From the NCBI GenBank assembly GCA_028710985.1, contig JAQTTB010000001.1:457864-521863 (forward strand): DNA of 64,000 nt, written 5' to 3'. Positions 16,744 to 50,529 of this stretch are shown here, piece after piece. The notes under the pieces are model-generated. The model did not search any database. It was not told the origin of the DNA and was given only the letters and a program-made list of their open reading frames with translations. Made by a program: the position numbers and the translations under genes. This DNA is from Patescibacteria group bacterium (GTDB lineage: Bacteria > Patescibacteriota > Patescibacteriia > JAHJFT01). The first letter of the stretch is position 1. Every line of letters begins with the position of its first letter.

Positions 16744-16747
16744 ATTT

Positions 16748-36185: not shown

Positions 36186-36196
36186 TGTGGTATACT
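36186..36196 (+). promoter_or_regulatory. Extended -10 promoter TGtGGTATACT for the T4SS-like operon
   Basis: TTGTGGTATACT 40 nt before ATG 36236. Confidence 0.4.
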
Positions 36197-36235
36197 AATA
36201 ATGTAAAATTTGACTAAATCTGCGACATTTTTACA

Positions 36236-38698
36236 ATGATTACCGCTTTTAAAAATAAGGTGGTAGATTTGGCGTCAAGGTGGAGGCGGACGGCTTTTGT
36301 TTTGTCCGTTTTTTTGTTTAGCGGTTTGGGAATGGCCGCCGCGCGTCCGGCATACGCGGCCGCCGAAGCGCTTGCCGACATGATTTCATATATTTTGATA
36401 AACTGGGTGATCGCCACCATCGGTAAAATCATTCTTTTGCTTTTTAATCTCGTGGTCGGCTGGCTCGCGCCGTATAACAATTTTATCGATTCCGCTGCTG
36501 TGGTTACCGGCTGGGTTCTGACGCGCGACATGGCTAATATGTTTTTTATCCTTGTGCTTCTGGCCATCGCATTCGGCACAATTTTGAAAATAGAACAGTT
36601 GAATTATCAGCGCATCCTGCCCAAGCTTTTAATTATGGCCGTGGTTATTAATTTCAGCAAAACACTCTGCGGTCTCGTGATTGATTTTGGCCAAGTGGTG
36701 ATGCTTACGTTTGTGAATGCGTTTATGTCCGCGGCCGGCGGAAATTTTCTGAACGCCCTTGGACTTACCAAGCTCATGCAGCTAAGTCAGAACACTACGC
36801 TTGATTTCGGATCGTGGGAGGTGGCCGCGGCTGCTCTTTTTGGCACCATTATGATGGGTGTGACGCTTATGGTAGTTGTGGTTTATGTCATCGTGCTCGC
36901 GTATCGTATTGTCATGCTCTGGATACTCGTGATTCTTTCGCCGCTCGCGTTTTTGGCCGGCGGTTTTCCGATCGGTAAGGCGAGCGCAGCCTATGGCCAG
37001 TGGTGGGACAATTTTGTCGGCGCCGTTCTCATCGGTCCGGTACTTGCGTTTTTCTTATGGCTCGCGCTTCTTACGGCCGGCGGCGGCACCCTGGGCCAAG
37101 ATTTTATCAATACGCAGTACACGGCCCCGACATCCGAAGAACAAATCAGCGGCAGCCTGACTGAGAATTACTTTATTACCGAAGGCGGGACCAGCGAATC
37201 AACCGTGGGATTTATCATCGCCATCGCCCTGCTTCTTGCCGGGCTTGCGGTTGCCCAGCAGGTGGGCGGCGAGCTTGGCGGCGTGGCCGGCCAGTGGGCC
37301 GGTAAAACAAAAGGATTTATGGCCGGCGCCTTGACCGGCGCGGCCGTCGGCGCAAGCAAACTCGGCGTTGGTGCGGCCCGCAAAACCGCGGGCTGGACCG
37401 ACCGCCAGCTCGGAGTCCGGGAAAAGCTCTATGGCGGAATGGCCAAGGTGCCGGGCCTAAAACAGCTTGGTTACACCCAGCTTGCTAAAACCCGCCACGA
37501 ACGCGCGCAGAAGACCGGCGAATTGGCCAAGGTTGTTTCTAGCCTCGCGCCCGCGGAAGTGGAGAATTTGCTCAAGGGTCGGGCGATGACTGCCGATCAG
37601 AAAGAACTGCAGATGCTCGGGCATAAGCAGGCGCTTAGCTCCGGGCATGCCGGCTTTCTTGCGAAACAGGGCAAGAGCAAGCCGGAAATTTTGGCTGAGC
37701 AGGCCAAACATCTGGATGTGTTTACCAGCATGGCCAAAGAACGCGGTGATGTTGAAATGATGAAATTTGCCGGCGAGTATAAAGATAAAAATCCGCACCT
37801 TATTTTGGATTCAAAAGCAAAAGCCAATGCCTATAAAGACGCTTCTTCCGAAGATAGAAAAAAATGGTCATCTGACGCGTGGCGCGATACCGAAGGCTTG
37901 GCCGCGCTTGCCGAAAAAGAACGGCAGACCCCGGGGATTATATCCGAAGTTTTGAACAAGGCAGGGGGCGAGCCATCCAAACTTTTCAATAAGTTTATGG
38001 ATGATTATCCGGCCGGAGCCGCTATGCCGGGAGCCGGCATATTCACAATGGACAAAGGCTTTCAGCCCGCGGTCTTAACCGGAGCTCAGGCTTTTGGCGC
38101 CAAAGCCGCCGGCGTGATTCTTGAAGACTTGATGAAGGCGCGTGATTCAAAACTAAATTTCATCGCCAGAGAAGGCTATAACCCGGCTACCAATGTTTTC
38201 AACCCTGATGTTTTGCGCAGTAGCATGAAGATTCAGGCCGAAGGCGGGAACGCGGAGCAGGCTTTTGGCGCGGACCGGAAAACCGGCCAGTTTATTAACG
38301 ATCAGTTTGGTGCAAGTTTTGGCGCCGCGTTATTGGAGGCGAAAGCCGATACTATCGGTTCGATTGGAGAGTTTCAAACGCTTTCCGAAGCGCAAGTCGC
38401 CGGAGGTAAATTTATACTGGGCATCGATGATCAGGCTTTAAAAGTCAAGGACGGTGATTATCGCGAAAAAGTTATTAATAATATTGATGTGGATAATTTA
38501 GTTACTGCAACCGAAGTGGCAGAGAGGGAAAATATACCCGGAGGCATGGAAAAAATTAAGAGCCTGCTCAAAGAATTTCAATCCGAGGCTCAAACCATCA
38601 GATCTTCGGGTAGTGTAAGCGACAAAGAACAGATTATCCTGGACAAGATTGACAAGATGACGAACAACGACACCCTCCGCCGGGCGATGGGTAAATAA
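36236..38698 (+). CDS. TrbL/VirB6-like polytopic membrane protein with large soluble C-terminal extension
   Basis: About 7 TM helices in the first 330 aa with a Gly/Ala-rich inter-helix pattern, then a 450-aa soluble region; first gene of the VirB4-containing operon. Confidence 0.5.
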   Translation: MITAFKNKVVDLASRWRRTAFVLSVFLFSGLGMAAARPAYAAAEALADMISYILINWVIATIGKIILLLFNLVVGWLAPYNNFIDSAAVVTGWVLTRDMANMFFILVLLAIAFGTILKIEQLNYQRILPKLLIMAVVINFSKTLCGLVIDFGQVVMLTFVNAFMSAAGGNFLNALGLTKLMQLSQNTTLDFGSWEVAAAALFGTIMMGVTLMVVVVYVIVLAYRIVMLWILVILSPLAFLAGGFPIGKASAAYGQWWDNFVGAVLIGPVLAFFLWLALLTAGGGTLGQDFINTQYTAPTSEEQISGSLTENYFITEGGTSESTVGFIIAIALLLAGLAVAQQVGGELGGVAGQWAGKTKGFMAGALTGAAVGASKLGVGAARKTAGWTDRQLGVREKLYGGMAKVPGLKQLGYTQLAKTRHERAQKTGELAKVVSSLAPAEVENLLKGRAMTADQKELQMLGHKQALSSGHAGFLAKQGKSKPEILAEQAKHLDVFTSMAKERGDVEMMKFAGEYKDKNPHLILDSKAKANAYKDASSEDRKKWSSDAWRDTEGLAALAEKERQTPGIISEVLNKAGGEPSKLFNKFMDDYPAGAAMPGAGIFTMDKGFQPAVLTGAQAFGAKAAGVILEDLMKARDSKLNFIAREGYNPATNVFNPDVLRSSMKIQAEGGNAEQAFGADRKTGQFINDQFGASFGAALLEAKADTIGSIGEFQTLSEAQVAGGKFILGIDDQALKVKDGDYREKVINNIDVDNLVTATEVAERENIPGGMEKIKSLLKEFQSEAQTIRSSGSVSDKEQIILDKIDKMTNNDTLRRAMGK

Positions 38699-38709
38699 AA
38701 GAATTTTCT

Positions 38710-40521
38710 ATGGACGCACTGACCACAACCCGCTATCTTCCGAGATCGGTAAAAACATATTTGGGTTCGGCTGAAGTGACGGATATCAATATTGATATCA
38801 AAAAAAAGTTTGATTTGCGGGAAAGGGAACTTGATATTCTCTTTGAACTCACCTGGGATATTCTGGAAGGTCGCCGCGCGCCGCGCGCCCTGGCTTACGA
38901 GCTCAAGGCGCAGATAAAATGGCAGGAAAAAAAAGCCGCTGAAGTTGCGCTGGAAATCCTTGGACGAAAACTTTTGCCCCTTTCCAATCTTATCCCCGGC
39001 ATTCCGGAAGCGATTAAAGATCTCGGCGCTGATCCGGCCAAGTATCCGCAGAAAAAAATCACGTCCGATCAGACGACCCTGCCGGTTTTTGTGGATGAGA
39101 TGATCCGCGATCTCGGCATCCAGCTCGCCGACAAATTTTTGAAACACCGGCTTGAGAATGTTGCCGAAGCAAAAATCAAAGGAGTGCGTGATGATTTTGA
39201 AACAAAAGAAAGAATGGTCCGTGGAATAAAAATCGGTGGGCTCGAGCTCGCCCCGACACAGGCTGACCAAATTATCGCCTACATCGAATCTGCGAAGAAA
39301 ACCATACAAATCGTTGACCGCCCATCCGCTCCGACAGCGGTTGGGGGAACGGCTCCAGCCGTAGCGATTCCGCTGTCAAGGATGCCGGCCGAGTCCGAAG
39401 TGCCGGAAGAAATCACGAGACATGAAACCGGAACCGCCGCGCCTTTCGCCATGCGCCCCGAGGATGTCGCTGAAATCCACGCCGAGCGGGGCCGGGAAAT
39501 CTCGGATGCCGTTTTGCCGGAGTACGAACGAGTAGATAAAGATATTATAAAAGATTCAGGATTCAGTTTTTCCGATCCGGATATGCAAAAGCGTTTTGAA
39601 AACACGGTTCGCGCGCGCGTGCGTGATGTGCGCGACGAACTGGAGACAAAAAATATACTGACCCGCGGGCCCAAAGAGGGCGGACTCGGCTTGCCTAAAG
39701 AAAAATCCGACCGCCTCATCGCTCTCATCAATCAAAAAGTCGGACCCCTTCGCCTGAAACTCGCGAAAATCGAAGAGCAAAAAAAGGCTGAACATCTCGT
39801 GAGAGAAAAACGAAATCGGGAAATCGGCCGCGAGAGGGAAGAGGAGAACTTGAATCGCCGCTACGCCAAACTTACCGGACGAATGCCGAGCTCGATGCCC
39901 AGTGAAGAAAAAAAACCGGAACGAACCCTGCCCTTAAAAGACCATATTATTAAGCCGAGCGCTCCGGTGATAAAACCGGTCGCCCAAGTTTCGGTCGTGA
40001 CAGCCGTGATTCCGCAAGAGCCGGGATTACCGATGACGATTGTGCCGGTCCCGATCGCGATCGGGACGCCGGTCCGCCCGGCATCTCGTCCGGAATCGCT
40101 AAAGCCCAAGGTTCGCGTCTCGCCGCCGAGTATTCCGGCGCAGACGTCGCAAACCGGCCGGCCGCGCGTTGAAGAAATAAAGTTTTCGCGCAGGCTGTTC
40201 GGGCCGATTGAGGAATTGCGCGAAATGAAGTTTGAAGATTTTCGCCGCCTGTCGCGCGAACCGCGGGAACGCGCCATTAAGATAAAGGACAAGATAGATC
40301 TCCTGGGCGAAGAATCATTTGAGAAAAAAATGCAGGGCATCGCCGCGTGGCAAGAGAGCCCGATTAATAAACTGTATCTGAATTTAATACAGGAAGCGTT
40401 CCAGACCGGCAAGAACATTGAGACAATTACGCGCGAACGTGAAGCCGCCGGCCGTTCGACGCTTTCATGGGACGAATTCCAGTCAATTATTGAGCTAAAT
40501 CAAAATTTAGGTAAAATTTAA
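38710..40521 (+). CDS. Hypothetical charged/helical protein (603 aa) within the T4SS-like operon
   Basis: No TM; K/E/R-rich. Confidence 0.45.
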   Translation: MDALTTTRYLPRSVKTYLGSAEVTDINIDIKKKFDLRERELDILFELTWDILEGRRAPRALAYELKAQIKWQEKKAAEVALEILGRKLLPLSNLIPGIPEAIKDLGADPAKYPQKKITSDQTTLPVFVDEMIRDLGIQLADKFLKHRLENVAEAKIKGVRDDFETKERMVRGIKIGGLELAPTQADQIIAYIESAKKTIQIVDRPSAPTAVGGTAPAVAIPLSRMPAESEVPEEITRHETGTAAPFAMRPEDVAEIHAERGREISDAVLPEYERVDKDIIKDSGFSFSDPDMQKRFENTVRARVRDVRDELETKNILTRGPKEGGLGLPKEKSDRLIALINQKVGPLRLKLAKIEEQKKAEHLVREKRNREIGREREEENLNRRYAKLTGRMPSSMPSEEKKPERTLPLKDHIIKPSAPVIKPVAQVSVVTAVIPQEPGLPMTIVPVPIAIGTPVRPASRPESLKPKVRVSPPSIPAQTSQTGRPRVEEIKFSRRLFGPIEELREMKFEDFRRLSREPRERAIKIKDKIDLLGEESFEKKMQGIAAWQESPINKLYLNLIQEAFQTGKNIETITREREAAGRSTLSWDEFQSIIELNQNLGKI

Positions 40522-40961
40522 TGCCGGAAAAATTTGTAGTGCCGCAATTCATTGACGTGGAAGATAAGATATTTGGGCCGATCACGACTCGCCAGTTTGT
40601 AATTTTGCTCGTGGATGGATTGTTCGTTTTTATCGCGTTTAAATTATTGGAGAAGATTTTATTCATTCCGGCGGCTATTTTGCTCCTCGGAGCCGGCGGC
40701 TTGCTTGCTTTTATAAAAGTGAACGGCATGCCATTTCATTTTTTTCTTCTGAACATCATTCAGACAATGAAGCGTCCGTCTCTCCGCGTTTGGGATAAAA
40801 CGCCTAGCAACACCGAACTGCGCGCGTACATCAGCAAGCCTGAAGTCAAAGCCGCGCCCGTTCCTCCCAAGAAAGAGCCATTAACAACAAGCCGCCTGTC
40901 CGAACTTTCGCTCATCGTTAATACAGGCGGTTTATACAAACCCGAAGAATATGAGCACTAA
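40521..40961 (+). CDS. PrgI/VirB3-like small membrane protein
   Basis: MPEKFVVPQFIDVEDKIFGPITTRQFVILLVDGLFVFIAF... matches the PrgI-family N-terminal pattern; sits immediately upstream of VirB4. Confidence 0.45.
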   Translation: MPEKFVVPQFIDVEDKIFGPITTRQFVILLVDGLFVFIAFKLLEKILFIPAAILLLGAGGLLAFIKVNGMPFHFFLLNIIQTMKRPSLRVWDKTPSNTELRAYISKPEVKAAPVPPKKEPLTTSRLSELSLIVNTGGLYKPEEYEH

Positions 40962-41622
40962 AAAAATTGTCAGACCCGGCCAACCAACTCAGCGTTACAT
41001 GGACATCGCAGAAATCCGCGAGGATGTGGTGATAATGAAGGACGGCACACTGCGCGCCGTTATTCTGGTCTCAAGTATCAATTTCGCGCTGAAGTCGGTG
41101 GATGAGCAGGAGGCGATTATTTCCGCCTACATGCAGCTTTTGAATTCGCTAGAACATCCTTTGCAGATTGTAATTCAGTCGCGTCGTATGAATATTGAAA
41201 AATATCTTGACGCCCTGAAGGAAGAGGAAAAAAATCAGAAAAACGATCTTTTGAGCGCGCAGATTTCCGATTATCGCAGTTTTATCAACCAGTTGGTTGA
41301 GCTTGGCGAGATCATGAGCAAGAAATTTTTTGTTACCGTGCCGTACGACCCAATGTCGGATAAGCAGAGAGGTTTTTTCTCGCGGATAAAAGAAATTTTT
41401 TCACCAGCCGTAAGTCTCAAATTGAGCGGCCAGAAATTTATTGAGCGCCGCAAGGAGTTGATGATGCGGGTGGAGCATATCATAGGCGCCCTACAGAGTA
41501 TCGGGCTCACCACCGCGCTTCTTGATACCCAGAGTTTGATTGAACTTTATTACAGTGTTTACAATCCCGAAGTTTACGAAAGCCAGAAGGTCAAGGATTT
41601 AAGCAAAATACAAATAGAATAA
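40951..41622 (+). CDS. VirB4/TraC-family ATPase, N-terminal segment encoded as a separate ORF
   Basis: QRYMDIAEIREDVVIMKDGTLRAVILVSSINFALKSVDEQEAIISAYMQLLNSL aligns by pattern with the VirB4 N-terminus (LPY...VLLEDGS...DGV.FEL); ends with a TAATAA double stop. Confidence 0.6.
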   Translation: MSTKKIVRPGQPTQRYMDIAEIREDVVIMKDGTLRAVILVSSINFALKSVDEQEAIISAYMQLLNSLEHPLQIVIQSRRMNIEKYLDALKEEEKNQKNDLLSAQISDYRSFINQLVELGEIMSKKFFVTVPYDPMSDKQRGFFSRIKEIFSPAVSLKLSGQKFIERRKELMMRVEHIIGALQSIGLTTALLDTQSLIELYYSVYNPEVYESQKVKDLSKIQIE

Positions 41623-41626
41623 TAAT

Positions 41627-43579
41627 ATGCCATTCCGACCAAAAGAAGCCGTTGCTCCTGAAGCCAAAACCGGCGCGGTTGCGCCGACCGGCCGCATCGT
41701 GCGGCGCGAGGCCGAGGCGCGCGCCGAGGCCGAGCGAGAACGCATCGTACTTGAAGAAGAGCGCATTTATCGCCGCGGTGTTGTTTCCATCCGCGACCTG
41801 ATCGCGCCGGCCGCTTTTGAAGTAAAACCGAACTATCTCCGGCTCGGCGACAGCTTTTGCCGCACGATTTTTATTGTCACTTATCCGCGCTATGTTTCGG
41901 TTGGATGGGCGACGCCGGTTATCAACTATAATCACACCCTGGATATCGCCATGTTTTTCTATCCAGTCAAGGCGCCGATAATTTTAAAACAGCTCAAGAA
42001 TAAAGTCGGCGTTCTGGAGGCCCAGATCATGGCCGATTCGGAAAAAGGCGCTCCTCGCGATCCGATTCGCGAAACCGCACTCCGCGACATTGAACAGCTT
42101 CGCGACGACCTGACGCAGGGGATTGAGCATTTTTTTCAATTCGCTTTGTACATTACGATTTACGCGAAAGATGTTACGGAACTGGATAAGATATCAACCG
42201 ATATCGAAACCATCTTCGGTTCAAAATTGATTTATTCCAAGCGCGTTCTTTATCAGTCCGAGCAGGGCTTTAATTCCACTGTGCCGCTCGCGAACGACGA
42301 GCTCATGATTACCTTCAATATGAACACCTCGCCGATTGCTTCGTCGTTCCCGTTCACTTCGGCCGAGCTTACTTCGGACAACGGCATACTCTACGGAATA
42401 AACCGCCACAACAACAGCCTGATTCTCTTTGACCGTTTCTCCATGCCGAACGCCAACATGGTTGTTTTTGCCACTTCCGGCGCCGGCAAGAGTTATGCCG
42501 TAAAACTGGAAATCTTGCGCAGCCTGATGCTTGGCACGGATGTTCTCGTCATTGATCCGGAAATGGAATACAAGCACCTTTCCGACGCGGTCGGCGGCAC
42601 CTACATCAATATTTCCCTGGCTTCGGAAAGCAAGATTAATCCGTTCGATCTGCCGCGGCCCATGGGCGAGGATATCAGCACCGAGGATATTATCCGGAGC
42701 GCCGTAATTACTCTCAAGGGTTTGCTCCGCATCATGCTCGGCAAGCTCACTACGGCCGAGGATTCGCTTTTGGATCGCGCGCTTCTTGAAACCTATGCTA
42801 AGCGCGATATTACGCCAAGTTCCGATCTTTCTACCGTCGAGCCGCCGATTATGCAGGATTTGCAGGAAGTGCTCGAGGGCATGGAAGGTACCGGCGATTT
42901 GGTTGTCCGGCTCAAGAAATTCACTGACGGCACATTTGCCGGTCTCTTGAACTCGCCGACCACGGTCACTATGAAAGCCCAGCTCGTGGTCTTCAGCGTG
43001 CGCGATCTTGAGGACGAGCTCCGTCCGATTGCTATCTATACCATCATCAACTACATTTGGAATGTCGTGCGCTCGGAGAGCAAAAAACGCATTCTCACGA
43101 TTGACGAAGCCTGGTGGCTGATGATGCACGAGGACAGCGCAAAATTTATTTTCGCCTTGGTCAAACGCTGCCGGAAATACTATCTCGGCATTACCACCAT
43201 CACGCAGGATGTTAACGATTTTTTGTCCAATCCGTACGGCCGCTCTATTGTCACTAACTCCTCAATGCAGATTCTGATGAAACAGTCGCCGGCCGCGGTT
43301 GATTTGGTGCAAAAAACTTTTCTTCTCACCGAGGGGGAGAAATATCTTCTTCTTGAGTCCGCGGTCGGAGAGGGGATTTTCTTCGCCGGCACAAAGCACG
43401 CGGCGATCAAGGTGGTTGCTTCGTATACCGAGGACCAGCTCATTACCACCGACCCGCGCCAGCTCTTGGAAATAGAAGAATCAAAAAAGCAATTCGCCGA
43501 AGAGGTGCTCGGTCAGTCCGAAGCCCTGCCTGCCGGTAGGCAGGGCGCTTCCGGGGAACCCCCAGCAATAAATATCTAA
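41627..43579 (+). CDS. VirB4/TraC-family type IV secretion ATPase (middle and ATPase domains)
   Basis: IAPAAFEVKPNYLRLGDSFCRTIFIVTYPRYVSVGW; Walker A FATSGAGKS; Walker B ILTIDEAWWLM; C-terminus carries the palindrome insert (EALPAGRQGAS). Confidence 0.8.
   Translation: MPFRPKEAVAPEAKTGAVAPTGRIVRREAEARAEAERERIVLEEERIYRRGVVSIRDLIAPAAFEVKPNYLRLGDSFCRTIFIVTYPRYVSVGWATPVINYNHTLDIAMFFYPVKAPIILKQLKNKVGVLEAQIMADSEKGAPRDPIRETALRDIEQLRDDLTQGIEHFFQFALYITIYAKDVTELDKISTDIETIFGSKLIYSKRVLYQSEQGFNSTVPLANDELMITFNMNTSPIASSFPFTSAELTSDNGILYGINRHNNSLILFDRFSMPNANMVVFATSGAGKSYAVKLEILRSLMLGTDVLVIDPEMEYKHLSDAVGGTYINISLASESKINPFDLPRPMGEDISTEDIIRSAVITLKGLLRIMLGKLTTAEDSLLDRALLETYAKRDITPSSDLSTVEPPIMQDLQEVLEGMEGTGDLVVRLKKFTDGTFAGLLNSPTTVTMKAQLVVFSVRDLEDELRPIAIYTIINYIWNVVRSESKKRILTIDEAWWLMMHEDSAKFIFALVKRCRKYYLGITTITQDVNDFLSNPYGRSIVTNSSMQILMKQSPAAVDLVQKTFLLTEGEKYLLLESAVGEGIFFAGTKHAAIKVVASYTEDQLITTDPRQLLEIEESKKQFAEEVLGQSEALPAGRQGASGEPPAINI
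43526..43545. repeat. Palindrome-family copy 3, CCTGCCTGCCGGTAGGCAGG, in-frame inside the VirB4 CDS
   Basis: Read directly; the same 24-mer is present in the clpC-like gene in the same gene-relative orientation. Confidence 0.9.
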
Positions 43580-44194
43580 ATGACAAAAACGATAAAAATT
43601 ATTTTAATCGCGCTCGCTGGGGTGATGTTGCTTGCCGGCATAATGTTTTTGATTTGGGCACTCATGACGCGGCCGGCCGTAATTTTCAAACCCGCGCCGG
43701 CTCAGCCTGCCGCCGAAACTACGGAGCCCCTGCCGACCGGCGGTTCGGTTATGGTTCCAGTGAGTACGACAACGCAAGAGGTTTCCGGAATTCCGTTTGA
43801 AGTCAGTACTTCGGCCGAAGCGGAAAAACAGGCCGCCAAAAATCTTTGCATTCTTTTCGCCGAGCGGTTCGGAAGTTTCTCGAACCAGGGAAGCTACGAA
43901 AACATCACGGATTTGTTGTCGGTCATGACGCCGTCCATGCGCGTCTGGGCCGAAAATTATGTTTCCAAGAATGCGTCCGCGGCTCCGGCTGAATACTACG
44001 GAGTAAGCACCAAGGTTGTTGCCAATACTTTTAATAGCTATGATGCGGCGCAGGGCAACGCCGTGATGACTCTCGATACCCAGCGCCGCGAAATGCGCGC
44101 TTCGGTCGAAGATCGGATTTATTATCAGGCCATCAGAATTTCGCTTAAGAAAATTGACGGCGCGTGGCTCGTCGACAGCGCATCATGGCAATAA
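43580..44194 (+). CDS. Membrane-anchored hypothetical protein
   Basis: N-terminal TM helix, 204 aa. Confidence 0.45.
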   Translation: MTKTIKIILIALAGVMLLAGIMFLIWALMTRPAVIFKPAPAQPAAETTEPLPTGGSVMVPVSTTTQEVSGIPFEVSTSAEAEKQAAKNLCILFAERFGSFSNQGSYENITDLLSVMTPSMRVWAENYVSKNASAAPAEYYGVSTKVVANTFNSYDAAQGNAVMTLDTQRREMRASVEDRIYYQAIRISLKKIDGAWLVDSASWQ

Positions 44195-44844
44195 AAGATT
44201 TTTTACTCGATTTAATATTTCCAAAGTTCTGCCTGCAGTGCGGGCGGGAAGGCACCATGCTTTGCGCCGAGTGCGTTTCGGCGATTGATCCGCAATGGGA
44301 TCCCCTTGATTTTGAAAATCAAAAGGAGGTATTAATAGGTCGTTTAATCAGCCTTGGGTACTACCGCGAAAAAATTTGGCAGCGTATTATTCAAAATCTA
44401 AAATATCAATACGTAACTGAGCTTGAAAGCGCGCTGGAAAATCTCGTCGGCCGGTTTATACAAAAATATCCTGAATCTATCGGCGTGCCCTATGATTATC
44501 TTGTTCCCGTGCCGTTGCACCGTAAAAGACTGCTTGAACGCGGATTTAATCAGGCGGAAATAATTGCCCGCTTAATTGGAAAAAATACCGGTTGGCCGCT
44601 TGAAAGCGAAAATCTATACCGAAAAAAGAACACCGCGCCGCAGGCCCAGCTCGAAGATGAAAAAAGAAAGGCGAATTTAGTCGGCGCATTCGGCGTCCGG
44701 AATCCGGAGCGGTTTGAAAATAAGAAAATTTTGCTTATTGATGATGTATATACCACGGGTTCAACTATAAAAGAATGCGCCAGTACCCTTCTCGCCGCCG
44801 GCGCGGCCGAAGTCGGAGCCTGGGTCGTCGCCCGCCGCACTTAG
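44164..44844 (+). CDS. ComF-family protein (double zinc ribbon + phosphoribosyltransferase domain)
   Basis: CLQCGREGTMLCAECV...; C-terminal LLIDDVYTTGSTIKECASTLLAAGA PRTase motif. Confidence 0.7.
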   Translation: MARRQRIMAIKDFLLDLIFPKFCLQCGREGTMLCAECVSAIDPQWDPLDFENQKEVLIGRLISLGYYREKIWQRIIQNLKYQYVTELESALENLVGRFIQKYPESIGVPYDYLVPVPLHRKRLLERGFNQAEIIARLIGKNTGWPLESENLYRKKNTAPQAQLEDEKRKANLVGAFGVRNPERFENKKILLIDDVYTTGSTIKECASTLLAAGAAEVGAWVVARRT

Positions 44845-44909: not shown

Positions 44910-44999
44910 GGAAGGGTGGCAGAGCGGACGATTGCACCGGTCTTGAAAACCGGAGTCCCTTCACGGGGACCGTGAGTTCGAATCTCACCCCTTCCGCCA
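44910..44999 (+). tRNA. tRNA-Ser (anticodon TGA), class II, CCA encoded
   Basis: Acceptor GGAAGGG/CCCTTCC; anticodon arm CCGGT-CTTGAAA-ACCGG; long variable arm; T arm GTGAG-TTCGAAT-CTCAC. Confidence 0.85.
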
Positions 45000-45014
45000 T
45001 TCTGTAGACTATTC

Positions 45015-45110
45015 GGAGAGGTGGCCGAGAGGCTGAAGGCGGCGGTTTGCTAAACCGTTATACGTGGTTTTTGCCGCGTATCGAGGGTTCGAATCCCTCC
45101 CTCTCCGCCA
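45015..45110 (+). tRNA. tRNA-Ser (anticodon GCT), class II, CCA encoded
   Basis: Acceptor GGAGAGG/CCTCTCC; anticodon loop TTGCTAA; long variable arm; T arm GAGGG-TTCGAAT-CCCTC. Confidence 0.85.
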
Positions 45111-45136
45111 ATTTATAAAATTCAAATCCAGACAAT

Positions 45137-45610
45137 ATGCCGGAAATTACTAAAATCACCCACGAAGTGCCGGAATTTATCAAACACGAAAGATCGCTTC
45201 TTTGGTATATTGTTGCATTTCTGATTGCCGGCGGGCTGGTCACTTATGCTATTCTCAGCGGGAACTTTTTATTCGCCGTTATTGTTGTTCTCATCGGCGT
45301 GATTATTGTCTTGACTTCGTTCCGCGAACCGCGTAAGCTGAGTTTCGAGATCGATCCAATGGGAGTGGCTGTCGGAGGCAAGAGATATAAATTTACGGAT
45401 TTTAAGGATTTTTCCATCATTTACAATCCGCCGGAAACCAATACGCTGTATCTAGAATTTCGCATGCCTCTGCGCGAGCGGCTTTCGGTGCAGCTCGGTG
45501 ATATGGATCCGAACGAAGTGCGGGAATATTTAATGAATTTTTTGAAAGAAGATCTGGAACGTGAGCAGGAATCACTGAGTGATATCTTAAGCCGTTTATT
45601 GAAATTTTAA
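45137..45610 (+). CDS. Hypothetical membrane protein (2 TM) between tRNA genes
   Basis: 157-aa ORF. Confidence 0.4.
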   Translation: MPEITKITHEVPEFIKHERSLLWYIVAFLIAGGLVTYAILSGNFLFAVIVVLIGVIIVLTSFREPRKLSFEIDPMGVAVGGKRYKFTDFKDFSIIYNPPETNTLYLEFRMPLRERLSVQLGDMDPNEVREYLMNFLKEDLEREQESLSDILSRLLKF

Positions 45611-45611
45611 T

Positions 45612-45689
45612 GCGCCCGTAGCTCAGCTTGGATAGAGCGCAACCCTGCGGAGGTTGAGGCCAGACGTTCAAATCGTCTCGGGCGCACCA
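45612..45689 (+). tRNA. tRNA-Arg (anticodon GCG), CCA encoded
   Basis: Acceptor GCGCCCG/CGGGCGC; anticodon arm CAACC-CTGCGGA-GGTTG; T arm AGACG-TTCAAAT-CGTCT. Confidence 0.85.
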
Positions 45690-45699
45690 TGATAATTAG

Positions 45700-47760
45700 A
45701 TGTACAGTTTGGATGCACCAATTAAAGAATTGGCGCGCGCTGGAAGAGTAAGGGAGGGGCAGATGGCGCGTTTGGGTATTGAGACCGTTCAGGATCTCAT
45801 TTTTTATTTTCCAAAAAGATACGAAGATCTGTCGCGGTTACAAAAAATCGACGAACTCGCGATTGGCGAAAACGCGACCATTCATGCCCGGCTTGAGCAG
45901 ATAAAAAGTTTTCGCAGTCCGAGAAAACACATGATAATTACTGAGGCCCTGGTCGCCGACGAGACCGGCAAGCTGCGTATCGTTTGGTTTAACCAAGCCC
46001 ATCTTTCCAGGGCCATGAAGCCCGGTTCTTTTTATTATTTTTCTGGCAAGGTTGACGACAAATATCATTTTGAAATGCTGAGTCCGGCTTGGGAGCTCGC
46101 TCATGCCGGCGGGGAGCAGATTCACACGAACCGCATCGTGCCGCTTTACGCGCTCACCGAGGGGGTGACGCAGAAACAGCTCCGCTGGCTCATTAAGCTC
46201 GCCCTGCCGTCGGTTGAGGGTTTGGATGAGTGGTTTCCGGAATACATTACCGAGCGGGAATCGTTTCCTTCAATTCGCGACGCGCTTCGCGTGATACATT
46301 TTCCGGATGATCTGGATTCCGCGGCCGCGGCTTTAAAACGTTTTAAATTTGGCGAACTTTTTTTGCTTCAGCTCTTGGCAGCCAAAAACCGCCAGGGTTT
46401 AAAAGAGCTGCCGGCTCCGCGCATCACGCTCCGGCCCGAAGTATTAAACCGCTCTTTCGAGCGCCTGCCGTTTAAATTAACCAGTGATCAACAGGTCTCG
46501 CTACAGGAGATTCTCCTTGATCTCTCTGGCGAACATCCCATGAACCGCCTTCTTGAGGGGGATGTGGGTTCGGGCAAGACGATTGTTACCGCCCTGGCCG
46601 CCGGACAGGTGGTGGCGAATGGTTATCAGGTTGTTCTCATGGCTCCGACATCAATTCTCGCGCGCCAGCATTATGAAAGTTTGCTTAAATATTTTAAAAC
46701 GAGCGGCATTTCCGTCGGCCTCTTAACGCGCACCGACGCGTCAGTCGGCGGCGAGAGCGTCAAGGCCCGCGAATTCGTGGACGCGCTCTCGGTCGGCAGC
46801 CTCAACTTTGTCATCGGCACGCATGCCATTCTTGAGGAAAAAATAAAATTTAAAAATCTCGGGCTCGCGATAATCGATGAACAGCACCGTTTTGGCGTGC
46901 GCCAGCGCCAGGCGCTTCGCGAGCGCAATCAGGGTGAATACTGGCCTCATCTCCTTTCTCTCACCGCGACGCCGATTCCGCGCTCGCTCGCACTTACTCT
47001 TTACGGCGATCTCAACCTCTCCATCATCCAGACCATGCCGCCGGGCCGCAAGCCGGTGATCACCGACATCGTGAGTGAAACCGGCCGGGCTTCGGCGTAC
47101 GGCTTTATTAAAGAAGAACTCAAACGCGGCCGCCAGGCTTTCGTGGTCTGTCCGCTGATTGAAGAGTCGGACAAGCTCGGCGTCAAGTCCGTAACCGCGG
47201 AATACGAAAAATTAATTCAGGTTTTTCCGGGATTCCGCATCGGCCTGCTTCACGGCAAGCAGAAACTCGCGGACAAAGACGCCATCATGGCGGATTTTAA
47301 ATCCGGCGGCATTCATCTCCTCGTCTCCACTACCGTAATTGAGGTCGGAATCGATATTCCGAACGCCAGCATTATTATCATCGAAGGCGCCGAGCGTTTC
47401 GGCCTGGCCCAGCTCCATCAATTGCGCGGCCGCGTCGGCCGGAGCGGGGAACAGGGTTATTGCATGCTTTTTACGGAAAGCGCGAATCAAAAAACCCTGG
47501 ACCGGCTCAATGTCTTCCGCGGCTCAACTAACGGCTTTGAGCTCGCCGAGGCGGACCTTGAAATCCGCGGCCCGGGCGATATCTACGGCTGGGAGCAGTC
47601 CGGCTTTCCGCGCCTGCGCTTCGCGAGCTTCTCGGACAAGGGCCTGATCAAGAAAGCGCAAAAATACGCCCAGGAAATTCTGGACTCTTCCGGTCTCAAG
47701 AAATTCCCCGCGCTCGCCAAGCGGCTTCAACAGTTTGAGCGCAGCATTCATTTTGAATAA
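45700..47760 (+). CDS. recG: ATP-dependent DNA helicase RecG
   Basis: Wedge/OB N-terminus, GDVGSGKTIVTALAA, DEQHRFGV, QLHQLRGRVGR. Confidence 0.9.
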   Translation: MYSLDAPIKELARAGRVREGQMARLGIETVQDLIFYFPKRYEDLSRLQKIDELAIGENATIHARLEQIKSFRSPRKHMIITEALVADETGKLRIVWFNQAHLSRAMKPGSFYYFSGKVDDKYHFEMLSPAWELAHAGGEQIHTNRIVPLYALTEGVTQKQLRWLIKLALPSVEGLDEWFPEYITERESFPSIRDALRVIHFPDDLDSAAAALKRFKFGELFLLQLLAAKNRQGLKELPAPRITLRPEVLNRSFERLPFKLTSDQQVSLQEILLDLSGEHPMNRLLEGDVGSGKTIVTALAAGQVVANGYQVVLMAPTSILARQHYESLLKYFKTSGISVGLLTRTDASVGGESVKAREFVDALSVGSLNFVIGTHAILEEKIKFKNLGLAIIDEQHRFGVRQRQALRERNQGEYWPHLLSLTATPIPRSLALTLYGDLNLSIIQTMPPGRKPVITDIVSETGRASAYGFIKEELKRGRQAFVVCPLIEESDKLGVKSVTAEYEKLIQVFPGFRIGLLHGKQKLADKDAIMADFKSGGIHLLVSTTVIEVGIDIPNASIIIIEGAERFGLAQLHQLRGRVGRSGEQGYCMLFTESANQKTLDRLNVFRGSTNGFELAEADLEIRGPGDIYGWEQSGFPRLRFASFSDKGLIKKAQKYAQEILDSSGLKKFPALAKRLQQFERSIHFE

Positions 47761-47775
47761 ATTAAAATAAAAAAA

Positions 47776-47798
47776 CGGCGAGTGCGCCGGTTTTTTTT
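47776..47798. terminator. Bidirectional terminator between convergent recG and the minus-strand operon
   Basis: AAAAAA-CGGCG-agtg-CGCCG-G-TTTTTTTT. Confidence 0.6.
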
Positions 47799-47806
47799 AT
47801 TTGTTT

Positions 47807-49276
47807 TTATCGATATAAATCCGGGTTCGCCAGGATTTCGTGCGCGTAAACCGGACAATTTTTTACCCAGCCGGATTTTAGATAGCCGATAAGAGATGAC
47901 TTGACCCTGACCGAACGGGCGGTATGATTATTCACCGTGATTGCCGGCGGGCCCCCGCCCATTTCGATGATCTCCTTGCCGGAAATTCCGGTATAATTTA
48001 TCGCATGTCCACAATTGCCATCCAGCCAGATAAAAGTTCCGGCGCTCAACGAAATTTTTTTATTTTCAAGGTCGTTCGCCATATCCTCGGCGCGAGAATA
48101 ATAATATTTTGCCTTTGACTGGTTAGTCTTATCGGGCAGGGGGTTAATATCAGCAATGCACTTATACAGAGTGCGGGTGAATGTTAAACAATCGCCGCAA
48201 TAAATGCTGCCCAGGCTTTGGGCCCAGCTGCGATAGGCGTCTATATCGCCGTTCCATTCTTCAAAGCCATTCTTCGCTAGTTTTTTATTATAATAATTGT
48301 CCGCCGCCGGTGCGGTGCAGGCGCCGGATTTCATGGTGCCGCCGCCGACATAGACAACTTTTTTTGGCAGCGCCGAGGACCAGGCATCAATAACTTTTTT
48401 TAAATTCGCGGCGTAATTTGCTGGATAGCTCTTGTCTTCCGGACATGCCTTCATCATATCGGCGTAAGAAACAAATCCGCCAGCCGCCGGAATTGCTGCA
48501 ATCGTTGCGTCATAGGACGACGAGTCATCTGCTCCGCCGAAGTATCCTTCGTCAAATGTTATCTCTTCGCGACCGATGATTGCGAGCCTCAGTGAATTAA
48601 AACTCACCAGATCTGGGTTTATTAGATTCAAAAGCGTGTATGAGCCGAGCGCAAGCACTAGCCCCATTGCCGCGCCGATAATAGATTTTTTGGCTTCGCT
48701 GATTTTTCCGGAATCGCCGGCCGCCGTCACCCAGCGGAATCCGCCGTACATGATCATTGTAATCGCAAGAATTGTCGCCACGCCGACCATATATCGATAT
48801 ACAGCGGCAATGTATTCGGCAAGCCAAGGGACGGAGACGAATTTTTGTCCGCCGACGTCGCTCACCATGAGTTTGCTAAATTGGATATTGAAGTCCGGAA
48901 TCTGCAGGGACGGTTCAATCGCCGAAAACGGAACGCCCTGGGTGATGCTTCCGCCAGTGCCGAACGCGCCGCTCGTTCCCGTTACTCCATAGCATTCGTC
49001 GCCCGGTTTTTCGTTCCAGTCAATATAACCGTCATCGCAATGCACCGCTTTCCAGGAAACGCTCGAAGTGGTGCGAGAAGCGCAGTAGATGTCGCATTGA
49101 GTTTTAGTCTCGACGTCTTCACCTGTCGTTTCGTCTTCTTCGGTATGATGTTCGCAGACATTGTTTGACCCAAGGCACCAGCAATGATCGCAGTCTACGG
49201 CTAAAACCGTCGACGGCATGAAAACAAAAATAAGCAGAAATAAAACTGCAGTTATTTTTTTATTCATGCGCATCAT
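47807..49276 (-). CDS. Secreted protein with Cys-rich N-domain, central two-helix hydrophobic (VirB2/TrbC-pilin-like) core and C-terminal papain-like (CHAP/NlpC-P60-like Cys...His) region
   Basis: Signal peptide; CDHCWC...; VGVATILAITMIMYGGFRWVTAAGDSGKISEAKKSIIGAAMGLVLALGSY; later IYCGDC ... GNCGHAINYTG. Confidence 0.45.
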   Translation of the reverse strand: MMRMNKKITAVLFLLIFVFMPSTVLAVDCDHCWCLGSNNVCEHHTEEDETTGEDVETKTQCDIYCASRTTSSVSWKAVHCDDGYIDWNEKPGDECYGVTGTSGAFGTGGSITQGVPFSAIEPSLQIPDFNIQFSKLMVSDVGGQKFVSVPWLAEYIAAVYRYMVGVATILAITMIMYGGFRWVTAAGDSGKISEAKKSIIGAAMGLVLALGSYTLLNLINPDLVSFNSLRLAIIGREEITFDEGYFGGADDSSSYDATIAAIPAAGGFVSYADMMKACPEDKSYPANYAANLKKVIDAWSSALPKKVVYVGGGTMKSGACTAPAADNYYNKKLAKNGFEEWNGDIDAYRSWAQSLGSIYCGDCLTFTRTLYKCIADINPLPDKTNQSKAKYYYSRAEDMANDLENKKISLSAGTFIWLDGNCGHAINYTGISGKEIIEMGGGPPAITVNNHTARSVRVKSSLIGYLKSGWVKNCPVYAHEILANPDLYR

Positions 49277-50494
49277 TTATTTTAGTCTCATCTTATTCAG
49301 ACGGCTGGTTGCCTGGTCAACGTAGAACAGATATTTGCCGTCTGAAGAAAGTGTAATCTGTTTTATGGTTGAAGCGTCTTCCGGCTTGCCCACGGTTGTT
49401 TTGCGGCCCGAGGCAAGGTCGATTTTATAAATCGTATCCGGAATGCCGTTCGCGAGGTCGCGCTGGAGTCCAGCGCCTTCAGGAAGATAGTCCGGCACCG
49501 CGCAGTATGCCGTGGAATTGTCGGCGAAAGTGCATTTATCCGCCCAGGTATTGACTTTCAGGGATTTTCGGTTCGCGCCGATATTCTCTCCGGAAGCGTC
49601 AACGACCCAAAGCACGGGATTATAATTGCTGTCCATATTGTACGCGTTGTACACCATTCGTTCGCCGGTTGGAGACCATTCATAGTCAAACCCCCAGCCT
49701 TCAATCACGAGCCCTGGAAAATTTTCATTATTTTTTCCGACCAGGAGCACCTGCTGGCGGTTGATGCCCATGGCTTCGCCAGTTCGCGAGGTAGCGATGA
49801 TTTGGTTATTTGGCGACCACTTTACCTGTACCTTGTCGCCGTTATTGCCGAGCGGTTCAATGGCTTCGGCGTCGGAGCCGTCCTTATTTGCCACGATGAG
49901 CCAGCGATTTTCCTCATCCAGGCCCATGCTTTTCGCCACGATTTTGTCTCCCTGCGGAGAAAAATCAAAATCCTCCCAGTGCTTGGGCAGGGTGATCTGT
50001 TTCTTGCTCTGAAGATCGTAAAGAATATTTGAGCCGTCCGGATATTCCAGAATCGCGCTCGCGCTGTCGCCGGACCAGTTCACTTTTTCCACATTATAAA
50101 AAGTCTGGGAGGAAAGCGACTGTACCGTGCCGTCGGGGAGCACTTTATTAAGCCGTCCGTTCGTCGGATCGTAGAAATTCATTCCCTGTCCGTCGCCGGA
50201 GAGCGCGGCGCTGGAGACGCTGACTGTTGGTGTGAGATTCTCAACCTGCGTGATTCCGCCGGAAGCAATTGGGGAGGCGGTTGGCAAAACCGGCGTCACT
50301 CCTTCAGTAACTTCGGTAGTCGGAGTTCCGAGGCCGGCTTCAGGAAGCTCGCTGGTCGGCGTCACTTCTTCTACGGTGGTAATTTCCAGAGTTTCGGCTG
50401 GCTTAAAGAAAAAATAATAAACTCCATATCCGGCCGCCGCGGCCGCGGCGATGAAAAGAATTATTATCAATATTTTTTTTAAATCAAATCGCAT
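49277..50494 (-). CDS. TolB-like beta-propeller (PD40-repeat) protein, N-terminal membrane anchor
   Basis: Repeated ...SPDG/SPTG...IVA/MVY... propeller-blade pattern. Confidence 0.5.
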   Translation of the reverse strand: MRFDLKKILIIILFIAAAAAAGYGVYYFFFKPAETLEITTVEEVTPTSELPEAGLGTPTTEVTEGVTPVLPTASPIASGGITQVENLTPTVSVSSAALSGDGQGMNFYDPTNGRLNKVLPDGTVQSLSSQTFYNVEKVNWSGDSASAILEYPDGSNILYDLQSKKQITLPKHWEDFDFSPQGDKIVAKSMGLDEENRWLIVANKDGSDAEAIEPLGNNGDKVQVKWSPNNQIIATSRTGEAMGINRQQVLLVGKNNENFPGLVIEGWGFDYEWSPTGERMVYNAYNMDSNYNPVLWVVDASGENIGANRKSLKVNTWADKCTFADNSTAYCAVPDYLPEGAGLQRDLANGIPDTIYKIDLASGRKTTVGKPEDASTIKQITLSSDGKYLFYVDQATSRLNKMRLK

Positions 50495-50529
50495 AATTTC
50501 TAAAAATAATTTTTTATTCCGGCGCTCCG

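Follow-up and report, generated by a model that had tools for sequence, protein, structure and literature searches.

A chromosomal type IV secretion locus with a terminal comF gene in a Patescibacteria genome of the class ABY1

A compact block of genes resembling a type IV secretion system (T4SS) lies between ksgA and a tRNA cluster, which raises the question of whether it is a resident or an integrated element of this chromosome and what it might transport. The DNA comes from a Patescibacteria MAG that falls in the Magasanik-/Uhr-/Falkowbacteria group (class ABY1), in keeping with the suggestion of an earlier note on this DNA that the apparatus is of a kind known from episymbiotic small-genome bacteria. 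The analysis covered a window of 64 kb, taken from a contig of 744 kb, and conservation was counted over 80 related loci (from about 80 species-level genomes). We consider it highly likely (probability of about 0.88) that the locus is the vertically inherited chromosomal T4SS that Patescibacteria (CPR) typically have, with its genes arranged in the way characteristic of the class ABY1.

Layout and components of the operon

Seven closely packed genes on the + strand span positions 36236-44844 (ORF coordinates as in the earlier note, Table 1), with intergenic spacings of -31 to +11 nt; the number of eight given previously is reached only if ksgA is included. ksgA lies upstream (HMM match 4.3e-61) and is separated from g820 by a spacer of 61 nt. 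This spacer contains TGTGGTATACT, which reads as an extended -10 at the place where a promoter had been proposed. The genes form one translationally coupled operon encoding a monoderm-type (MPF-FATA-derived) core of VirB6-like, PrgI/VirB3 and VirB8/PrgL-like proteins and a two-gene VirB4 motor. The initial description of a T4SS-like operon with VirB6-like, PrgI/VirB3, split VirB4 and ComF components is borne out, with HMM matches far above chance for PrgI, VirB4 and ComF. The gene order is kept across nearly all of the related genomes (56-80/80), even at a locus whose g603 homolog is only 26% identical.

Table 1. Features of the locus and its downstream region.
Feature	Position	Strand	Remarks
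Promoter-like extended -10 TGTGGTATACT (TGn-TATACT)	36186-36196	+	motif evidence, read from sequence
Second promoter-like candidate TTGACT-16-TACAAT	36210-36237		motif evidence
g820	36236-38698	+	820 aa
g603	38710-40521	+	603 aa
g146	40521-40961	+	146 aa
g223	40951-41622	+	223 aa
g650	41627-43579	+	650 aa
g204	43580-44194	+	204 aa
g226	44164-44844	+	226 aa; overlaps g204
tRNA-Ser(TGA), tRNA-Ser(GCT), tRNA-Arg(GCG)	44910-45689	+	ARAGORN
g157	45137-45610	+	157-aa TM protein among the tRNAs; found at 16 loci
RecG helicase	45700-47760	+	NCBIfam RecG 1.1e-244; conserved subclade neighbour
Bidirectional intrinsic-terminator-like hairpin	47776-47789		CGGCG-AGTG-CGCCG, T-runs on both strands; between RecG and pilin operon
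m489	47807-49276	-	secreted; VirB2-like T4SS pilin hairpin (residues ~150-220); first gene of convergent operon
m405 and m351	49277-51585	-	m405 TM-anchored; m351 Ala/Gly-rich with C-terminal hydrophobic segment; co-directional with pilin gene

The VirB4 ATPase is encoded by g650, which corresponds to its C-terminal ATPase portion. g650 was matched by NCBIfam conju_CD1110 (1.1e-97, 328.2 bits against a cutoff of 325) and Pfam P-loop_TraG (1.4e-28), carries the Walker A motif ATSGAGKS at residues 282-289 (pattern search) as well as a DEAW Walker B-like motif read from the sequence, and is 73-83% identical to proteins of Patescibacteria MAGs and at most 36% to non-CPR VirB4s (Firmicutes/Actinobacteria). 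The preceding g223 is TrsD-like and represents the equivalent of the VirB4 N-terminal domain as a gene of its own: it matched NCBIfam VirB4_plasma (2.2e-11, model positions 104-231) and TrsD (9e-6), its coverage of the conju_CD1110 model (positions 3-119) is complementary to that of g650 (175-730), and it is 29% identical (E 2e-32) to the gene directly 5' of VirB4 in Pontibacillus. Orthologs are present at 78/80 loci with a median length of 228 aa, and the one in locus L083 bears Pfam TraC-like. The previous description of a VirB4 in two pieces thus holds insofar as both pieces classify as T4SS VirB4 and not as a non-T4SS AAA family, but this is a conserved TrsD and VirB4 gene pair and not a broken gene. 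g146, described early on as a PrgI/VirB3-like protein, is a small membrane protein of this family (Pfam PrgI 2.8e-11, 44.2 bits against a gathering score of 27) with two TM helices by hydropathy and was found at 72/80 loci.

g820 has a signal-like N-terminus, about seven hydrophobic helices at residues ~45-342 (hydropathy) and a hydrophilic, K/R-rich C-terminal domain of ~470 aa that is probably cytoplasmic. While g820 itself stays under every Pfam/NCBIfam threshold, Pfam TrbL/VirB6 was reached by 4 of 36 sampled sequences among its 650 homologs (best match 1.1e-5, 25.7 bits against GA 25.9). Weak alignments of one conserved segment were obtained with R388 TrwI (hhalign probability 2.4%) and with the TrbL-like protein of Pontibacillus (5.7%); no similarity was found to the 266-aa PrgH of pCF10 (0.2%). 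No transporter family was matched by g820, and some family members match TrbL/VirB6 only. These sub-threshold matches suggest that g820, syntenic at 60/80 loci, is an extended VirB6-like membrane protein, as the earlier note had proposed for this polytopic protein.

No recognisable homology had been reported for g603 and g204, and for g603 this stands. In g204 a TM helix at the N-terminus is followed by a Pro-rich, disordered linker and, C-terminally, by an NTF2-like domain, which AF2 modelled with a pLDDT of ~90 as three helices and a 4-stranded sheet. A Foldseek search against the PDB placed the VirB8 domain of PrgL (7aed) at rank 2 (E 3e-4) and also returned CagV (6iqt, TM 0.65), and hhalign of the g204 family profile with pCF10 PrgL gave a probability of 88.6% (E 2.6e-6). 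Predicted fold and profile comparison point to g204 being a VirB8/PrgL-like bitopic protein, an assignment new here, so that only g603 is truly unrecognisable. VirB8 was detected sparsely in a recent survey (PMC12102498), whereas at least 56 of the 80 relatives carry the VirB8-like gene and the other loci show a gap of 530-930 nt at the same place. The NTF2-like fold is common to many non-T4SS proteins.

g603 is a conserved T4SS-associated cytoplasmic protein and is what remains novel in the locus; its family was not singled out in the ABY1 survey (PMC12102498). It has neither TM segment nor signal peptide and is built of three all-alpha modules (~10-200, ~250-390 with a 60-residue helix, and ~497-601) with two disordered, Pro-rich linkers between them, and contains an internal duplication of ~63 aa. 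Neither a sequence nor a fold relative was found for this family of 2,692 cluster representatives.

The operon ends, as first described, with a ComF gene. g226 is a ComF/ComFC-family protein with a 4-Cys zinc ribbon and a phosphoribosyltransferase domain (TIGR00201 comF 1.3e-33, GntX 4.9e-30, Pfam Pribosyltran and DZR_2; CxxC at residues 23 and 34, PRPP motif at 189). ComF is present at 74/80 loci with an identity of ~33% among relatives. Its distance to the g204 ortholog has a median of 1 nt and is at most 50 nt in 46/52 cases, making ComFC the conserved, overlapping final gene of the operon.

Downstream region and inheritance of the locus

A VirB2-like pilin-domain protein, m489, is encoded in a convergent operon 4 kb downstream, a finding new here. 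m489 matched Pfam T4SS_pilin (2.5e-8, 34.3 bits against GA 26.6) and NCBIfam Mbov_0395 pilin-like (1.3e-5), and an HMM built from 8 of its relatives matched both Pontibacillus T4SS pilins (3e-17 and 2.6e-15). A Cys-rich N-terminal domain lies on one side of its hairpin and a C-terminal domain of ~260 aa on the other; the hairpin alone is conserved, and both flanking domains differ between lineages. The pilin gene is convergent at the same position in 8 loci. The operon within the range 36186-44844 is real, and since the pilin domain lies in the first gene of the convergent operon, the system extends past the block to which it had been confined. For m405 and m351 no Pfam or NCBIfam match was obtained, nor a sequence match in the PDB for m405, which adjoins the pilin gene in loci L039 and L045; both are unproven candidate members of the T4SS.

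Integrative conjugative elements classically carry T4SS genes, and integration often takes place at tRNA genes. An integrated conjugative or mobilisable element, or its remnant, inserted at the tRNA-Ser/Arg cluster could therefore be considered, and the block does adjoin three tRNA genes, confirmed by ARAGORN as the Ser, Ser, Arg cluster noted before, with an IS200-like transposase fragment 9 kb 5' of it. However, no relaxase, VirD4/T4CP, integrase or ComEC was found in any ORF of at least 80 aa within the window, although a VirD4 or relaxase may lie farther away on the 744-kb contig. Neither att-like repeats nor direct repeats that include the tRNA genes were detected, and the GC content of the operon (0.49-0.52) lies inside the window background and is indistinguishable from that of the flanks. 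The flanking genes are housekeeping genes (GroEL, RF, epimerase, KsgA, RecG, Clp ATPase). Of 13 related loci scanned, 12 have the tRNA trio after ComF and the 13th lacks tRNA-Arg only. The trio and RecG come next in a subclade of relatives, and the T4SS-ComF unit is retained at loci whose tRNAs sit elsewhere. Transfer of VirB4 between Patescibacteria classes is moreover rare (PMC12102498), and the operon recurs across about 80 species-level genomes. A mobile origin is largely refuted and very improbable; the tRNA cluster, previously viewed as an integration hot spot, is conserved syntenic context and no integration scar.

Relation to known systems and possible function

The Patescibacteria VirB4 clade is nested within MPF-FATA, with TrsD, PrgI, VirB6, VirB8 (mostly in ABY1) and VirB2 encoded near virB4 and relaxases rare; in many Patescibacteria, T4CP homologs are encoded at a distance from virB4 (Quinonero-Coronel et al., 2025, Microb Genom, PMC12102498). 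ABY1 loci commonly contain comF, recG and radA, with RecG a typical neighbour and ksgA often nearby (PMC12102498). The present locus shares the chromosomal location, Patescibacteria-clade VirB4, separate TrsD-like gene, PrgI/VirB3, VirB6-like and VirB8-like proteins, nearby VirB2-like pilin, neighbouring comF and recG, nearby ksgA and lack of a relaxase, and differs in nothing essential. Its architecture, including the comF/recG linkage in ABY1, was already published in 2025; the locus is one more instance of a conserved chromosomal feature of the ultra-small CPR bacteria and illustrates a known system well, without being a new one.

Outside the CPR, the MPF-FATA prototype Prg/Pcf of Enterococcus faecalis pCF10 has the same order, VirB6(PrgH)-VirB3(PrgI)-VirB4(PrgJ)-...-VirB8-like(PrgL), and the same families in Pfam PrgI for g146, the CD1110 VirB4 model for g650 and PrgL for the g204 family. 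VirB4 is undivided in pCF10, which also encodes the PrgK hydrolase, a VirD4-like T4CP, a relaxase and adhesins but neither a pilin nor counterparts of g603 and ComF; in the operon studied here no VirB1-like hydrolase was found. Among non-CPR VirB4s, the closest match (36% identity) comes from a relaxase-less cluster on the 898-kb plasmid of Pontibacillus sp. ALD_SL1 (NZ_CP062975), which has the same architecture with two T4SS_pilin genes, a 779-aa TrbL-like protein, a PrgI/TraL-like protein, the TrsD-like protein related to g223 and VirB4. It differs in a large NlpC/P60+M23 hydrolase 3' of VirB4 and in small, upstream pilins, and has no g603 homolog, annotated VirB8-like gene or ComF.

The T4SS of Southlakia epibionticum ML1 (SEML1_0006-0019; Wang et al., 2023, Cell, PMC10633639) is likewise a Gram-positive-like system of an epibiotic CPR bacterium; it has VirB2-like pilins, and neither a relaxase nor a coupling protein can be recognised in its cluster. 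Southlakia is a member of another class, the Saccharimonadia; its system has six small pilins in an array where the present locus has one 489-aa pilin-fusion protein, and hydrolases adjoin its virB4. Its T4SS genes and pilin array are essential for epibiotic growth (PMC10633639; PMC12857230), essentiality having been shown only in this organism, while comEC, comF and dprA, encoded elsewhere, are dispensable (PMC10633639), so that the essential role is not Com-dependent DNA uptake.

For the role of this T4SS we infer a host-contact conduit, possibly with DNA import. VirB6, VirB3 and VirB8 would make up the membrane translocon, VirB4 would drive its assembly and transport, and the pilin would form a short pilus or conduit reaching the epibiont's host cell. 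g603 and the C-terminal domain of VirB6 may occupy the place at the cytoplasmic face that the coupling protein takes in canonical systems. Such a machine would be no conjugation apparatus and would transfer macromolecules across the epibiont-host interface. Given the tight linkage of ComFC (and RecG/RadA) in ABY1, the handling of incoming single-stranded DNA is a plausible, if unproven, part of this role.

The conduit might have no DNA role at all, exporting proteins or just building a contact pilus, with ComF as an operonic hitch-hiker. Protein export or an alternative capacity was proposed by Wang et al. for the relaxase- and T4CP-less Southlakia system, where com genes are dispensable (PMC10633639). 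The variable extra domains of the pilin protein would be expected under host-range adaptation, and g603 could be a substrate, since it has no signal peptide yet long Pro-rich linkers. We give this reading somewhat less than even odds: no effector, chaperone or secretion signal was identified, and the very tight, old coupling to ComF is left unexplained.

Helicobacter pylori ComB (with ComEC/ComFC) and archaeal Ced are T4SS-like systems for DNA uptake. They share with the locus a VirB4-type ATPase, a VirB6-like membrane protein, a VirB2-like pilin and the lack of a relaxase, and ComFC is associated with the system in H. pylori. ComB, however, is of the diderm MPF-T type and has VirB7-10, and ComEC and CedA were not found here. 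Working inward in this manner, the pilin/VirB6/VirB4 channel would bring in host or environmental DNA, ComFC would take the single strand at the cytoplasmic face for processing by RecG/RadA, and g603 would be an adaptor replacing the coupling protein. We regard such import as rather unlikely. It is favoured by the place of ComFC as the overlapping final gene of the operon and its abutment on the VirB8-like gene in most relatives despite low ComF identity, by RecG as the next gene in 13 loci and RecG followed by RadA in L083, and by the lack of a relaxase and T4CP nearby. This is guilt by association only, and comF adjoins unrelated genes in many bacteria. g650 matches the CedB model locally (4.4e-11), but over only ~70 residues of the shared ATPase core, and ComEC, ComEA and DprA are absent from the window. 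The association of comF, recG and radA was also noted for ABY1 at large (PMC12102498); competence of Southlakia, on the other hand, depends on ComEC and type IV pili (PMC12857230; PMC10633639), and its T4SS is essential independently of the Com genes.

Operon layout, inheritance and mobility

Seven plus-strand genes were counted downstream of ksgA, encoding in order g820 (likely VirB6), the 603-aa protein g603, g146 (PrgI/VirB3), g223 (TrsD-like), g650 (VirB4), g204 (VirB8/PrgL-like) and g226 (ComF/ComFC). An earlier note on this DNA had counted eight, and all ORFs that it listed were recovered at their coordinates. The genes are tightly packed, with junctions of +11, -1, -11, +4, 0 and -31 nt in this order. 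The 61 nt spacer between the ksgA stop and the operon contains the sequence TGTGGTATACT, which can be read as an extended -10-like motif (TGnTATACT), in agreement with the promoter proposed in the earlier note, and a second promoter-like site is present in the same spacer. Identical proteins occur in an NCBI Patescibacteria MAG, where PHW53_02390, PHW53_02395 and PHW53_02415 are annotated as hypothetical proteins.

To follow the synteny of the operon, the proteins of the window were compared by tblastn with 80 related genome loci. Orthologs were obtained for g820 in 60 loci, g603 in 68, PrgI in 72, the TrsD-like protein in 78, VirB4 in 80, g204 in 56 and ComF in 74, and operon order and strand were identical in every case. 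The misses largely correspond to contig ends, or to a gap of 530-930 nt exactly at the position expected for a diverged g204. ComF lies a median of 1 nt from the g204 ortholog; the gap measures at most 50 nt in 46 of 52 cases, and the two genes overlap in 24 of the 52. In the distant relative L083 the g603 homolog is only 26% identical, yet the operon order is unchanged and is followed by RecG and RadA, a layout that agrees with the comF/recG/radA association described for the class ABY1 in the literature. In L083 ComF is separated from RecG by three inserted genes (16692-19384 of that locus), one of them HNH endonuclease-like and the other two unknown, and RadA comes after RecG.

The three tRNA genes that follow ComF were confirmed. 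The trio of tRNA-Ser(TGA), tRNA-Ser(GCT) and tRNA-Arg(GCG) was found after ComF in 12 of the 13 relatives that retain RecG downstream, the thirteenth lacking tRNA-Arg only, and no direct repeats link the tRNA genes to the upstream boundary. Therefore, the adjacency to the tRNA genes is inherited synteny and not an integration scar, and the hint of an integration hot spot at the cluster is not supported. Apart from this hint, the earlier observation is confirmed and its interpretation supported. A 157-aa membrane protein without family assignment is encoded between tRNA-Ser(GCT) and tRNA-Arg(GCG), and is conserved beside RecG in 16 related loci.

The GC content of the operon (0.49-0.52) is unremarkable for the window, and the other recognizable genes in the 64 kb are all housekeeping genes (NusA, YidC, GroEL, a release factor, an epimerase, KsgA, RecG, a Clp ATPase, phosphoglucomutase, a racemase and aminoacyl-tRNA synthetases). 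The features of a conjugative element were not found in the 64-kb window (of a 744-kb contig): no relaxase family was matched by the ORFs of at least 80 aa, VirD4/TcpA-type coupling protein (T4CP) families gave no match, and the Pfam search returned no integrase. Repeats of the att type involving the tRNA genes were not seen either, and the distribution among relatives is one of conserved synteny.

Positions of the features discussed in the text
Feature	Position	Strand	Remark
Giant ORF	16616-25582		2,988 aa
IS200-like Y1 transposase fragment	26422-27009	-	
M23 peptidase gene	27962-30004		680 aa
GC peak	28001-30000		GC 0.63 (rest of the window 0.45-0.55)
ksgA stop	36174		
Promoter-like motif	36186-36196		
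T4SS operon	36236-44844	+	g820 to g226
Membrane protein gene between tRNA genes	45137-45610		
Bidirectional terminator	47776-47789	both	clean, at the end of RecG
Convergent operon	47807-51585	-	m489, m405, m351
m351	50530-51585	-	

Components of the secretion machine

The VirB4 assignment was upheld by the match of g650 to the NCBIfam model conju_CD1110 (1.1e-97, 328.2 bits at a cutoff of 325), and g650 also matched P-loop_TraG (1.4e-28). Its nucleotide-binding motifs are intact, with Walker A at residues 282-289 and a DEAW motif visible in the sequence. In HMM searches g223 matched the N-terminal part of the VirB4 model as well as TrsD, so that the 752 positions of the CD1110 model are jointly covered by g223 (3-119) and g650 (175-730). 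Separate TrsD-like and VirB4 genes are kept in 72-78 of the 80 loci, with median ortholog lengths of 228 aa and 631 aa, respectively, and the conserved split is therefore not a frameshift. Directly upstream of the VirB4 genes, g146 encodes a VirB3-like small membrane partner with two TM helices (Pfam PrgI, 44.2 bits; gathering score 27). The last gene, g226, encodes a member of the ComF family in which the zinc ribbon and the PRPP motif are present. These HMM matches all lie well outside what chance would give.

VirB4 proteins from MAGs labelled Magasanik-, Uhr-, Falkowbacteria or Parcubacteria, lineages that we take to form together the GTDB class ABY1, are 73-83% identical to g650, while the best matches outside the Patescibacteria come from Firmicutes and Actinobacteria and reach at most 36%. 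Judged by percent identity, g650 appears to group with Patescibacteria VirB4s and not with those of other phyla. Many loci (L002, L004, L008, L010 and about 35 others) are titled 'uncultured Gammaproteobacteria bacterium' and carry a Patescibacteria-type T4SS operon with a VirB4 73-78% identical to g650; it looks as if these MAGs were mislabelled on submission.

The 603-aa and 204-aa proteins had been regarded as lacking recognizable homology, which holds for g603, for which no structural relative was found, but not for g204. In the AF2 model of g204, a TM helix leads through a Pro-rich, disordered linker into a C-terminal domain, predicted with high confidence, in which a four-stranded sheet is covered by three helices. 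Foldseek placed the protein in the NTF2-like superfamily, with the VirB8 domain of PrgL (7aed) at rank 2 (E 3e-4) and CagV giving the highest TM-score (0.65). Independently of the fold comparison, hhalign of a 58-sequence g204 family profile with pCF10 PrgL gave a probability of 88.6% (E 2.6e-6); PrgL also ranked second, non-significantly, when the PDB was searched with a simple HMM. Because of the Foldseek placement and the independent match to PrgL, g204 is the VirB8/PrgL-like subunit, bitopic and with an NTF2-like domain.

The g603 family comprises 2,692 cluster representatives without a known fold relative; it is a large, uncharacterised family and a constant member of the operon. A Pfam scan of ten long g603 relatives for fused domains yielded none, and PHROG scans of the unknown proteins were empty, save weak matches of m351, a protein of the convergent operon, one of which (8.3e-4) is with a PHROG of unknown function.

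In g820 a signal-like N-terminus precedes a region of about seven hydrophobic helices, which ends near residue ~342, and a hydrophilic C-terminal domain of ~470 aa, which begins K/R-rich and is therefore probably cytoplasmic. Such an 'extended VirB6' layout has been described in a 2025 FEMS review. The protein itself matched neither Pfam nor other HMM families, transporter families included, and among 36 aligned relatives four matched Pfam TrbL/VirB6; the strongest of these matches (1.1e-5) scored 25.7 bits, where the gathering score is 25.9. By hhalign, one short conserved segment of the family aligns to R388 TrwI and to a TrbL-like protein of Pontibacillus with low probability (2.4% and 5.7%; PrgH 0.2%), and no similarity between g820 and pCF10 PrgH was detected. 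A profile of the g820 family, searched against the PDB, gave nothing but coiled-coil noise in the C-terminal domain, and tblastn of the membrane domains of g820 and P0079 against plasmids gave no match. PF19590, possibly 'TrbL_3', is precomputed on many g820 homologs and is given no weight in this assignment. The sequence evidence for VirB6 is sub-threshold, and g820 is regarded as a likely VirB6.

Beyond the operon, the T4SS extends to m489, a VirB2-like pilin by its domain match and the first gene of the convergent operon (Pfam T4SS_pilin, 34.3 bits; gathering score 26.6). It also matches the NCBIfam Mbov_0395 pilin-like family, more weakly and below cutoff (1.3e-5). An HMM built from m489 relatives detected both of the small pilins with which the Pontibacillus T4SS cluster begins (3e-17 and 2.6e-15), and the convergent pilin gene occurs in the same arrangement in eight relatives, sometimes duplicated; within the window m489 is the only protein with a pilin domain. 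Conservation is limited to the two-helix pilin hairpin, with variable N- and C-terminal domains. A conserved Cys/His (CHAP/NlpC-like) hydrolase was considered for the C-terminus and rejected, as no Pfam or PDB match was obtained and relatives do not share the domain. No recognizable relatives of m405 and m351 were found in Pfam or NCBIfam, and m405 gave no sequence match in the PDB. The first ~270 residues of m351, which is encoded in the same direction as the pilin gene, are 19% Ala and 17% Gly, and the protein ends in a hydrophobic segment.

Relation to known systems and possible function

In a survey of Patescibacteria T4SS loci, the VirB4 clade was monophyletic and nested in MPF-FATA, and TrsD was the accessory component met most often; the neighbourhood of virB4 included PrgI, VirB6, VirB2-like pilins and, nearly confined to ABY1, VirB8; relaxases were nearly absent, ksgA was among the frequent neighbours, and ABY1 loci were specifically associated with comF, recG and radA (Quinonero-Coronel et al., 2025; PMC12102498). 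The chromosomal housekeeping context with adjacent comF and recG corresponds to this description of ABY1. The window thus holds one more member of that published kind. With pCF10 it shares the order VirB6-VirB3-VirB4-...-VirB8, whereas PrgK, a T4CP, a relaxase and adhesins are found only in pCF10, and the pilin, g603 and ComF only in the window. The closest architecture outside the Patescibacteria is the relaxase-less cluster of a megaplasmid from a Firmicute (Pontibacillus sp. ALD_SL1, NZ_CP062975, 351801-361354), which is typed as non-mobilizable and also provides the best non-Patescibacteria VirB4 match. Located beside flagellar genes, this cluster encodes two pilins, TrbL-like, PrgI-like and TrsD-like proteins, an NlpC/P60+M23 hydrolase and VirB4. 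The Patescibacteria-type system and this cluster may be sisters.

The T4SS is among the few machines known to be essential to the epibiotic lifestyle of the Patescibacteria, a very large and mostly uncultivated group. No new kind of system emerges here; the parts list of the ABY1 T4SS is sharpened by a VirB8/PrgL homolog after VirB4, a pilin in the form of a large fusion protein encoded in the convergent operon, the translational coupling of ComFC to the machine in many species, and the constant g603 family. The overall picture is changed neither by g603 nor by the ComFC coupling or the assignment of VirB8. The ComFC coupling and the g603 family are leads on whether the system handles DNA and on what replaces the coupling protein.

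The monoderm-type inner core is complete, with VirB3, the split VirB4, a VirB8-like protein and a probable VirB6, and is accompanied by the VirB2-like pilin. From established T4SS biology, VirB6, VirB3 and VirB8 would form the membrane translocon, VirB4 would power assembly and transport, and the pilin would form an extracellular filament or conduit; according to the Patescibacteria literature, the machine would work at contact with a host bacterium. In Southlakia epibionticum the homologous T4SS is essential for epibiotic growth, and the com genes there are dispensable (PMC10633639; PMC12857230). Because the coupling of ComFC is tight and ancient and RecG and RadA are nearby, handling of incoming ssDNA is a reasonable hypothesis for the ABY1 system, to which we assign a chance of roughly one in five to one in four. 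A role in protein export, or one confined to contact, is at least as likely. Among the ORFs of at least 80 aa in the window ComFC is the one competence protein, ComEC, CedA and DprA being absent. A complete route of host-directed DNA acquisition by the ABY1 system, in which a pilin/VirB6/VirB8/VirB4 channel would pass DNA to co-translated ComFC and on to RecG/RadA, with g603 as a new cytoplasmic adaptor replacing VirD4, is given a chance of about one in five. Speculatively, g603 and the C-terminal domain of g820 are candidates for a docking platform, a role filled elsewhere by VirD4.

Other genes in the window

The M23 peptidase is a secreted protein with a Cys-rich MopE-like motif, and its gene coincides with the GC peak of the window. 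In L083 an M23 peptidase is encoded directly upstream of the VirB6-like gene. An assignment of the window's peptidase as a VirB1 analogue was not sustained, as its catalytic domain alone aligns with the L083 peptidase and it is present in just two of the 80 loci. The T4SS may use it as a cell-wall hydrolase, or its gene may have been acquired horizontally. The transposase fragment was recognized by Pfam Y1_Tnp (3.2e-5), and L083 has a comparable gene, also with a weak Y1_Tnp match, upstream of its T4SS (1325-1990). The sole recognizable domain of the giant ORF is a weak match to the carbohydrate-binding family CBM_4_9, and its product is probably one of the giant surface proteins that Patescibacteria genomes commonly encode.
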